Source of the DNA: an uncultured Bacilli bacterium
GTDB lineage: Bacteria; Bacillota_I; Bacilli_A; RF39; UBA660
Assembly: GCA_944358145.1 (NCBI GenBank)
Contig: CALVQO010000001.1
Coordinates: 1 to 63,034 of the forward strand
Reading direction: 5' to 3'
DNA: 63,034 nt
Shown piece after piece: positions 19,195-19,619 of the stretch. Positions within the stretch are counted from its first letter, which is position 1, and every line of letters begins with the position of its first letter. Made by a program: the position numbers and the translations under genes. The notes under the pieces were generated by a model. The model saw nothing but the letters and a program-made list of their open reading frames with translations, searched no databases and was not told the origin of the DNA.

Positions 19195-19223
19195 TTGCTT
19201 TTTTAATGGTTAAGTATCATAAT
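19195..19223 (+). promoter_or_regulatory. putative promoter of the candidate type I toxin mRNA
   Basis: TTGCTT (19195-19200), 17 nt, CATAAT (19218-19223). Confidence 0.45.
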
Positions 19224-19324
19224 AAATAACTGTTATTCATTTTAGTGGTAGCGCCTGCTTCATTTTGTAAGTAGTTTAAACTGCTTCTGTATTCAGGGGG
19301 TTTAATCGAAAGCAGGGAGTGTAT

Positions 19325-19408
19325 TTGAACGAAGAAATAAAGTATTTGTTTATTATAATAATTATGCTCATCTCCATTATTGGTGATGAGCATAAAAAAA
19401 GTCGCTAG
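19325..19408 (+). CDS. candidate type I toxin: 27-aa hydrophobic peptide (MNEEIKYLFIIIIMLISIIGDEHKKSR)
   Basis: TTG start 5 nt after GGGAG. One TM-length hydrophobic stretch plus a charged tail. It is embedded in a structured transcript with 5-prime/3-prime pairing (19245-19256 with 19437-19449) and a convergent antisense unit. Confidence 0.4.
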   Translation: MNEEIKYLFIIIIMLISIIGDEHKKSR

Positions 19409-19468
19409 CCATAAGGCATAGCGTCAACTGAAAAGTAGGCGCTATCCACTTTGGTGGATAACACTTAC
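19394..19468 (-). ncRNA. candidate antisense antitoxin sRNA (about 75 nt)
   Basis: Minus-strand promoter TTGTTT (19498-19503), 17 nt, TATATT (19475-19480). Hairpin TATCCAC-CAAA-GTGGATA. Terminator GCTATGCC-TTAT-GGCTAGC followed by GAC and T7, ending about 19394. It overlaps the last 5 codons and the 3-prime UTR of the peptide ORF. Confidence 0.4.
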
Positions 19469-19619
19469 GTATTAAATATAACATATTAAAGGGCAATAAA
19501 CAAGAAAAATTGAATGTTTAACTATAAAATTTTTTGACACCTTTTGCCATTGTTTTAGATAAATGTTATTGAGTTAGAAGGGAATTTATGATAATATAAT
19601 TATATAAGGAGGATTTGTT

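Follow-up and report, generated by a model that had tools for sequence, protein, structure and literature searches.

The 646-nt gap between addA and lemA in a 63,034-nt stretch of DNA from an uncultured Bacilli bacterium (contig CALVQO010000001.1 of assembly GCA_944358145.1; the whole stretch is hereafter called the window) contains a compact unit at positions 19169-19503 which is probably a type I toxin-antitoxin (TA)-like module. On the plus strand, a direct repeat is followed by a promoter from which an mRNA of about 240 nt would be transcribed; its first ~30 nt are predicted to pair with its last ~30 nt in two helices enclosing a structured 5′ untranslated region (UTR) and a 27-codon open reading frame (ORF). 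A convergent promoter would give rise to a putative RNA of about 75 nt, which is made up of a 5′ hairpin plus an intrinsic terminator and shows perfect complementarity to the ORF at its 3′ end as well as to the 3′ arms of the closing helices. By these features the unit represents a new family of the type I TA kind, defined in silico and not assignable to any named family.

A candidate type I TA module had been proposed here in an initial annotation of the window, and as far as sequence analysis reaches this reading is supported by the coding ORF, the pairing of the mRNA ends and the conserved convergent antisense unit. All the elements listed in that annotation (promoters, pairing segments, Shine-Dalgarno (SD) sequence, ORF, hairpin and terminator) were found where it had placed them to within one base.

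Unit boundaries and promoters

Metagenome contigs were scanned for the direct repeat followed by the −35 element, which resulted in 55 loci (L-numbers such as L002 or L085 are labels of the related contigs and loci compared with the window). Reading downstream of these repeat loci and a profile search with nhmmer gave 13 full-length copies of the unit including that of the window, hereafter referred to as family A; the 12 further copies are located in gut metagenome contigs. The coordinates of the features are given in Table 1.

The direct repeat ends 8 nt 5′ of the sense −35 element, and its consensus TGTCGRAnTTTGTCGRAC is common to the promoters of the window, L002 and L014. It occurs once in the window, compared to 0.01 expected occurrences, and is kept in 13 out of 13 family A copies, two of which carry 1-3 substitutions, as well as in nine aligned copies of a sister family described below (family B). 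Since sequence conservation in the family A alignment begins at the direct repeat and ends just beyond the antisense −35 element, the unit is considered to be ~335 bp long.

The peptide mRNA is predicted to start at about 19230, and the hexamers of its promoter hold their position in the 13 family A homologues. The antisense −10 element is preceded by TGT, making it an extended −10 element, and neither the TTG of the antisense −35 element nor the −10 hexamer shifts its position in any of the 13 copies; the hexamer reads TATATT, TATAAT or TAAAAT, in most cases with TGn. A promoter scanner, which found five sites compared to 5.1 expected, listed neither of the module promoters, so the hexamers alone are not above chance, and for this reason the support for both promoters comes from their conservation in every family A member.

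Table 1 Features of the addA-lemA module and related elements. Positions refer to the window unless an L-number is given.
Feature	Positions	Strand	Basis
Direct repeat TGTCGAAC-TT-TGTCGAAC, 10-bp period; 5′ boundary of the unit, candidate operator	19169-19186	+	Single match in the window, conserved in families A and B
Peptide mRNA promoter: −35 TTGCTT (19195-19200), 17-nt spacer, −10 CATAAT (19218-19223)	19195-19223	+	Sequence, conservation
Predicted peptide (putative toxin) mRNA, ~240 nt; 3′ end must reach at least 19463 for the outer helix	19230-19468	+	Fold, consensus structure
Outer closing helix, 5′ arm; pairs with 19453-19463	19231-19241	+	Alignment helix 1: 98% of cells paired, 3/8 pairs compensatory
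Inner closing helix, 5′ arm; pairs with 19433-19450, bulge at 19445	19244-19260	+	Alignment helix 3: 93% of cells paired
5′-UTR hairpin AAGTAGT-TTAA-ACTGCTT	19269-19286	+	Alignment helix 4: 5/7 pairs compensatory
G-run motif CAGGGGGTTT in the 5′ UTR, conserved; family B counterpart GGGGTTTTGG	19294-19303	+	Alignments
GAAAG-YAGG flank and SD GGGAG (19315-19319)	19310-19319	+	Conserved 5′ of the start codon in the family
27-codon ORF, TTG start, encoding MNEEIKYLFIIIIMLISIIGDEHKKSR	19325-19408	+	Family alignment, pN/pS
Hairpin inside the ORF, 93% complementary; sub-threshold Rfam potC match	19362-19395	+	Alignment helices 5 and 6, compensatory pairs included
3′ arms of both closing helices, wholly covered by the antisense RNA	19433-19463	+	Folds, strand test
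Predicted antisense (putative antitoxin) RNA, ~75 nt	19394-19468	−	Fold z = −4.2 (minus-strand 100 nt), consensus
Antisense intrinsic terminator: stem-loop 19423-19403, ACU, U7 (19400-19394)	19394-19423	−	Fold, alignment
Antisense 5′ hairpin, 11 pairs	19439-19464	−	Hairpin scan, strand test
Antisense promoter: −35 TTGTTT (19503-19498), 17-nt spacer, TGT and −10 TATATT (19480-19475); 3′ boundary of the unit	19475-19503	−	Alignment
Decayed remnant (stops, frameshifts) of a 412-aa hypothetical gene; context, outside the module	18994-19110	+	blastn, tblastn
Tandem-HTH (helix-turn-helix) homologue, 26-30% identical	45300-45746	−
Tandem-HTH genes	L133:4753-5214, L085:3387-3863, L089:1-357, L090:4143-4574; also L088, L094, L098, L101, L116, L128

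The peptide ORF

The peptide possesses a hydrophobic core of 13-14 residues and a basic tail. The aligned ORFs encode MNEEIKYLFIIIIMLISIIGDEHKKSR in the window and MNEEIKYLFIIIIMLISIIRDDHKKRR in L085, the latter with an ATG start; five family A copies encode the peptide MSDTKLLLIIIIMLISII(R)(D/E)(D/E)(H/Y)KK(S/K/R)R, and the further aligned family A peptides are MDEEKKYLFIIIILLLLVLLKAM, MHEEKKTLYIIIILLILVLLKLC and MNDKAFCQVVIILVLVLFSNRGQAKRR. The peptide length varies from 23 to 27 aa in the nine family A copies translated. In the ORF list of the window there is also a GTG-start version of the same frame (19319-19408). The choice of the TTG start is supported by the other 12 copies: 11 of them have ATG or GTG at the corresponding position, preceded in most cases by GGAGG or AGGTGA, and L133b has no start there.

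Between the window and L085, its nearest relative with regard to the ORF, there are 7.5 synonymous and 3.5 non-synonymous changes, with the synonymous proportion (pS) being 0.53 and the non-synonymous one (pN) 0.05, which gives a ratio of 0.10. Seven other divergent pairs show pN/pS values from 0.11 to 0.26, and the pair L086/L112 shows 0.57. Judging by this substitution pattern, the small ORF is a real coding gene under purifying selection, as the initial annotation had supposed. Of the single transmembrane helix with a charged tail that it had described, a hydrophobic core and a basic tail are present, the core being short for a membrane span.

Predicted fold of the peptide mRNA

The minimum free energy is −76.6 kcal/mol for the segment 19240-19460 (z = −6.3, none of 200 shuffled sequences folding as well) and −89.3 kcal/mol for 19229-19470. 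The long-range pairing of GTGGTAGCGCCT (19245-19256) with AGGCGCTATCCAC (19437-19449), listed in the initial annotation, is present, is conserved with compensatory changes and proved to be longer than claimed, comprising an outer and an inner helix. With 93-98% of cells paired, these two helices provide a long-distance 5′-3′ interaction closing the predicted full-length mRNA.

The consensus plus-strand structure was obtained with RNAalifold for the 13 family A mRNAs (alignment A1) and includes the two closing helices, the 5′-UTR hairpin, the ORF hairpin and the complement of the antisense terminator. Such a structure analysis of homologous copies had been proposed as a check of the module, and it came out clearly in its favor: 93.4% of cells are paired versus 34-51% with the partners slid by 1-3 columns, 15 pairs are changed on both sides, and none of 500 shuffles reaches any of the observed measures. 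The G-run motif pairs with the 3′ side of the 5′-UTR hairpin in an alternative fold of the homologues.

The segments CCTGCTT (19254-19260), CTGCTTC (19281-19287) and AAGCAGG (19310-19316, overlapping the SD) are all present, the first of them being both a part of the 5′ arm of the inner helix and an alternative partner for AAGCAGG. Since in the window copy CCTGCTT is located in the closing helix and CTGCTT in the 5′-UTR hairpin, their pairings with the SD represent alternatives and not the ground state. The mean unpaired probability of the SD does not exceed 0.10 in 8 out of 13 family A full-length mRNAs (family median 0.08), and the occluded SDs are mostly paired with a U/C-rich tract that directly follows the 5′ arm. 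If the final 80 nt of the window mRNA are blocked in silico, which mimics antisense binding, the SD closes (unpaired probability 0.01) and CCUGCUU takes AAGCAGG. The translation-locking pairings suggested earlier are thus supported only in part: CCTGCTT is predicted to capture the SD of the window copy once the 3′ arm is blocked, but the lock is neither the predicted ground state of this copy nor general in the family. Antisense remodelling of the SD region is possible but unproven in these models, and a lock of the hok/AapA type released by 3′ trimming is not claimed, as truncation in silico was inconsistent across the homologues.

The predicted antisense RNA

Over its entire length, the predicted antisense RNA is complementary to the peptide mRNA, where it covers the last 5 sense codons, the stop codon and the 3′ UTR. 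Its terminator lies inside the ORF, with the U-run being the complement of the Lys-Lys codons, and the sequence of the terminator stem varies between subfamilies with the pairing maintained. In the antisense consensus (A2), 94.7% of cells are paired, reaching 97.8% in the 5′ hairpin, which shows few double changes and many U·G/U-A alternations. The −35 element, the extended −10 element, the 5′ hairpin and the terminator are conserved in 13 out of 13 family A copies, so that a cis-encoded antisense RNA overlapping the putative toxin mRNA is predicted in each of them.

The two sets of helices differ in strand preference. The closing helices are canonical in 244 of 257 cells (95%) on the plus strand versus 217 of 257 (84%) on the minus strand, and the 5′ hairpin in 176 of 180 cells (98%) on the minus strand, 35 of which are G·U, versus 141 of 180 (78%) on the plus strand. 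As the G·U pairs fit the closing helices to the plus strand and the 5′ hairpin to the minus strand, both strands apparently carry selected RNA structures. The convergent promoter, hairpin and terminator of the ~75-nt RNA were thereby borne out as conserved elements, with this hairpin being fully paired on the minus strand only.

The 3′ arm of the antisense hairpin together with the bases just 3′ of it (GUGGAUAGCGCCUACUU) is a near copy of the mRNA 5′ arm (GUGGUAGCGCCUGCUU). Due to this resemblance the antisense RNA would rival the 5′ arm in binding to the 3′ arm, and the end-to-end helix would thereby be opened.

Distribution and decay of the family A copies

The family A copies are non-syntenic, with unrelated neighbor genes, and none of the 12 homologues adjoins addA or lemA. 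There is a tandem pair in L121, two copies located 9 kb apart in L133, families A and B together in L085, and a partial second family A copy in L086 (4641-4751). Decayed copies are found in L002 (3822-3886) and L088 (reverse strand, approximately 5822-5660), where an internal deletion removes the ORF and both promoters stay; the L088 copy also retains the closing stems. L098 (4300-4480, with equivalents in L101 and L128) harbors a promoter-less family A fragment with a frameshifted ORF. Such a distribution (non-syntenic, tandem or multi-copy, often decayed and absent in most close relatives) is typical of type I TA loci. The copy most similar to that of the window, L133:14255-14627 on the minus strand, has lost the aligned start (TTG to TTT, followed by an insertion) and may be translation-dead with the RNA structure and the antisense unit kept.

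The module is present and its ORF intact in 10 out of 10 conspecific contigs examined, which share an identical LemA; gene callers annotated nothing in the addA-lemA gap of these contigs. Two of them, L140 and L144, possess a block of 15 changes within 19372-19436, in the 3′ half of the module, with 16 changes over the whole gap and the rest identical. In the ORF the block comprises two synonymous changes as well as the replacements H-to-Y and S-to-R, and both new residues occur in paralogues. The clustering of the changes and the match of the replaced residues to paralogues suggest that the block arose by gene conversion from a paralogous copy. Neither the promoter motif nor the 3′ hairpin motif had a match when viral contigs were scanned for each of them, which gives no link of the family to the viral collection.

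Proposed mechanism and alternative explanations

If the unit is a type I TA-like module, the closed mRNA would be stable and poorly translated. The antisense RNA, the 5′ part of which mimics the mRNA 5′ arm, would invade the closing helix, and the resulting sense-antisense duplex of ~75 bp would be subject to RNase III-type decay; in the window copy, the freed CCUGCUU may also occlude the SD. RNA decay is regarded as the presumed primary action of the antisense RNA because blocking or truncating the 3′ end has no consistent family-wide effect on the SD. Once the level of the antisense RNA falls, the peptide would be made and membrane damage would follow. A DNA-binding regulator that gates transcription of the peptide mRNA probably has the direct repeat as its operator.

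Several observations weigh against this reading. Both promoters are weak by consensus, with each −35 element having three of six matches to TTGACA, and the terminator scan gave no canonical intrinsic terminator for the plus transcript. The window copy starts with TTG, the hydrophobic stretch of 13-14 residues is short for a membrane span, and the basic tail is absent in two subfamily members, L086 and L112. The SD of the window copy is largely accessible, with a mean unpaired probability of 0.60, and blocking or truncating the 3′ end shifts SD access inconsistently across the family (medians 0.21 and 0.17).

An alternative is a gene for a small membrane protein with a cis-antisense regulator, the peptide being a benign micro-protein and the antisense RNA tuning its level, an explanation which we find rather unlikely. 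It agrees with the fact that the coding signal and the antisense RNA are supported and toxicity is not, with the short hydrophobic core, with a third cargo of the same promoter motif (see below) consisting of a short RNA and a Prli42/DUF4044-like small protein and not of a toxin, and with the module being fixed and intact in the sampled conspecific population. However, the module is multi-copy, tandem, non-syntenic and present or absent among close relatives, deletions of the ORF only which leave the promoters and stems typify toxin loci and not housekeeping micro-proteins, and end-to-end pairing of the mRNA with SD occlusion is a hallmark of type I toxins (PMC6733600).

It is very improbable that the unit is a miniature inverted-repeat mobile element or a DNA palindrome, with the closing helices as its terminal inverted repeats and a merely incidental presence of the ORF and the promoters. 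Inverted repeats do flank a core of 200 bp, the unit is multi-copy at different loci, and L002 holds the flanks without the core, but the junctions in L002 and L088 are internal deletions keeping both promoters and not empty sites. Besides, the helices are strand-asymmetric with many G·U pairs, purifying selection acts on the peptide encoded in the interior, the edges of the unit are the direct-repeat element 5′ of the sense promoter and the antisense −35 element, and no target-site duplication was seen at the unit boundaries. The internal-deletion nature of the "empty" copies, the coding interior and the strand asymmetry led us to reject the mobile element.

It is hardly credible that the region represents a known RNA with a housekeeping or cis-regulatory role (6S RNA, a riboswitch or a lemA leader): the RNA is ~200 nt long, highly structured, has paired ends and is located 5′ of lemA, but the region holds a protein-coding ORF, none of the 12 homologues adjoins lemA, for which reason a lemA leader or riboswitch was rejected, relatives lacking the module keep an addA-lemA gap of 86-150 nt with a conserved promoter-like sequence 5′ of lemA, and Rfam at gathering thresholds matches neither the window module nor the module of the 12 homologous loci. 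Even a lax Rfam scan of 18950-19650 (E up to 10) gave only one match below E = 0.1, namely potC, and no 6S or antitoxin RNA family. The potC match (34.3 bits versus a cutoff of 44) was rejected, since it consists just of the ORF hairpin followed by an A-run. A housekeeping RNA recognized by a covariance model, such as 6S, had been named in the initial annotation as a finding that would overturn it, and no Rfam family matches.

Comparison with known type I systems

No sequence or covariance-model similarity to the named families (Fst/RNAII, TxpA/RatA, BsrG/SR4, SprA1, SprG and others) was detected with Pfam, NCBIfam and Rfam at E up to 10. Pfam and NCBIfam scans matched no family to the family A or B peptides and gave no type I toxin family at the same E value, and an exact look-up of ten family peptides in a collection of 15 billion proteins found none of them.

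In terms of organization, Gram-positive type I families put the antisense RNA on the 3′ side (T1TAdb, PMC8594479), and the module has the convergent 3′-side arrangement of Fst/RNAII, TxpA/RatA and BsrG/SR4 (PMC8594479). As in Fst (RNA I-RNA II, par of pAD1), a putative toxin mRNA and a small putative antitoxin RNA converge and overlap at their 3′ ends, and the peptide is hydrophobic, about 30 aa long in the case of Fst, with a charged C-terminus. According to work of the Weaver laboratory, the RNA I 5′ end reportedly pairs downstream of the ORF (the "upstream helix"), and the SD is said to be sequestered in a structured 5′ region. Par differs in that the productive interaction occurs via direct repeats in the 5′ region outside the overlap, the overlap itself being a shared terminator. 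The module deviates from par in that the predicted antisense RNA is confined to the 3′ end of the mRNA, extends over the stop codon and the last 5 sense codons, and stops at a separate terminator located inside the ORF.

The TxpA, BsrG, BsrE and YonT toxins are 38-59 aa long, and RatA and SR4 comprise roughly 180-220 nt. The peptide of the module is unrelated to these toxins and much shorter (23-27 aa in nine copies), and its antisense RNA (~75 nt) is far shorter than RatA and SR4. Likewise, the extensive 5′-3′ end-to-end helix and the host, uncultured "Mycoplasma sp. CAG:776"-like Bacilli, set it apart from the B. subtilis systems. What the module has in common with TxpA/RatA, BsrG/SR4, BsrE/SR5 and YonT/SR6 of Bacillus subtilis is the position of the antisense RNA, which overlaps the toxin transcript at its 3′ end and reaches into the end of the ORF (PMC8594479). 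The outcome expected of the TxpA/RatA type is RNase III-dependent decay (PMC3531473), and in BsrG/SR4 the SD region is remodelled upon binding of the antisense RNA to the 3′ end (PMC3834814), an effect seen for the module in silico only, in the window copy.

The hok and AapA mRNAs are closed in full length by a 5′-3′ long-distance interaction, which together with competing anti-SD-like segments is a hallmark of these systems (PMC6733600). Similarly to hok/Sok and AapA/IsoA, the module mRNA is predicted to be closed, with several mutually exclusive anti-SD-like segments suggesting metastable co-transcriptional folds. In those two systems, however, the mRNA is bound by the antisense RNA at its 5′ or translation-initiation region and becomes active upon 3′ trimming, whereas the module antisense RNA (19468-19394) covers the 3′ arm, and 3′ truncation in silico does not consistently open the SD. 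The family peptides are unrelated to hok and AapA and have no HOK_GEF match in Pfam.

Family B, other cargo and the candidate operator

Family B includes copies in L014, L085, L090, L091, L095, L098, L116, L127, L115 and others, with the one in L014 (3540-3900) occupying the same addA-lemA locus in a relative. This family shares the direct repeat, the −35 and −10 elements and an end-to-end helix (GAGCATTRGG... with ...CCTAATGCTC). Further features are the GGGGTTTTGG motif, an SD of the sequence GAAAGGAG and, in convergent orientation, the antisense promoter TTGTAT-17-TATACT. The family B peptide bears no relation to that of family A, comprises 34-41 aa with a conserved core (K)TSTIIIVxNNxTVNVY, and does not obviously span a membrane; MKKVFRLLMSLVRPKKKTSTIIIVCGNMTVNVYPKK is an example.

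A third cargo was observed at L084:6748, L087:629, L093:8592 and L118:1053, where the same motif serves as the promoter of a short hairpin RNA, and a 32-aa ORF (MSKRARKIFAWCMLIAMIASVAATVISYAIYS) is located convergently on the opposite strand. This ORF matches DUF4044 with 22.2 bits (cutoff 21.8) and Prli42 with 23 bits, below the cutoff of 27.5.

The direct repeat TGTCGAAnTTTGTCGAAC is not restricted to the module: in combination with TTGACA-type −35 elements it is also located 5′ of a cold-shock protein gene (L097, L103, L104), of conjugation-like genes (L100, L105, L106, L110, L122, L130, L131) and of several other small membrane ORFs. Judging by these positions, TGTCGAAnTTTGTCGAAC looks like the operator of a lineage-specific regulon. 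It resembles the CtsR box (RGTCAAAnAnRGTCAAA) and direct-repeat LexA boxes (GAAC-N7-GAAC) without matching them, as the sequence or spacing differs; we treat both boxes as leads.

In at least 10 loci of family A or B, a gene coding for a tandem Xre-HTH protein (~150 aa, two HTH_3 domains, RstR-like) lies directly 5′ of the repeat. Its coding region ends ~35-45 nt before the direct repeat, or ~260 nt in three L098-type loci, and the gene occurs twice as a tandem pair. No tandem-HTH gene was found beside the repeats preceding the cold-shock and conjugation-like genes, nor beside the module of the window. The protein fits a head-to-tail repeat because it contains two HTH domains in one chain, and by its gene position it may bind the repeat and is a candidate regulator of the putative toxin promoter. 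Tentatively, the module may be one output of a lineage-specific regulon and not a stand-alone two-RNA system, a doubtful reading at present.

The addA-lemA locus

The window has a G+C content of 27.5%, and TGA serves as a stop codon, which indicates genetic code 11. Its LemA is 96-98% identical to LemA of the closest loci found, which belong to gut metagenome-assembled genomes labelled "Bacilli bacterium", "uncultured Tenericutes" and "Mycoplasma sp. CAG:776". The gap separates addA (15899-18973, with UvrD-helicase domains) from lemA (19620-20171). In most relatives with 82-97% identical LemA, it has a length of 43-150 nt and no module.

In L002, the promoter region and the 3′ flank known from the window are kept at the locus and the core is gone, with the junction being TTTAGTGG|ATAACACTT. 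The 412-aa gene, a remnant of which precedes the module in the window, is intact at the equivalent position of L002 (2491-3729), and no family was assigned to its protein by Pfam, NCBIfam or PADLOC. L014 carries the same promoter at the same place with the family B cargo. An HD-domain gene represents other cargo of the gap in L014, with L003 looking similar, and the L005 gap contains a gene with a Fic-like HPFSDGNGR motif. PADLOC assigned no defence family to these flanking accessory genes, namely the L002 412-aa ORF and the L014 HD protein. As relatives differ here in module, cargo and accessory genes, the sequence comparison indicates that the gap is a variable spot, an insertion hot spot which received accessory genes along with modules.

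A putative promoter of lemA itself (TTGAGT, 17 nt, TGA-TAATAT) is located at 19567-19602, and the stretch just 5′ of lemA including this promoter-like sequence is conserved in relatives lacking the module. With its own apparent promoter, lemA need not rely on read-through from the module.

Significance

Type I TA systems are almost never annotated, and the catalogues consulted rest mainly on cultured, well-studied bacteria. To these, the present analysis adds two families, one well supported and the other its sister, from Bacilli which are abundant in the human gut, uncultured and reduced in genome size, and the gene models (promoters, fold, ORF, antisense RNA and boundaries) are precise enough for direct cloning. 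The design joins an antisense RNA on the 3′ side, as is typical of Gram-positives, to a helix between the two mRNA ends, of which hok and AapA are the best-known cases; combined with the antisense mimicry of the mRNA 5′ arm, this yields a testable strand-invasion mechanism. Owing to its small size, the module is a candidate for use as a compact regulatory device made of RNA. Modules of this type also tag variable sites of the genome, and strains in metagenomes could be distinguished by them. If the tandem-HTH protein binds the repeat, these would be three-component systems with a protein-gated promoter, a locked mRNA and an antisense RNA, and they would rest on a common scaffold of promoter, fold and antisense RNA in which one peptide ORF was exchanged for another, unrelated one.

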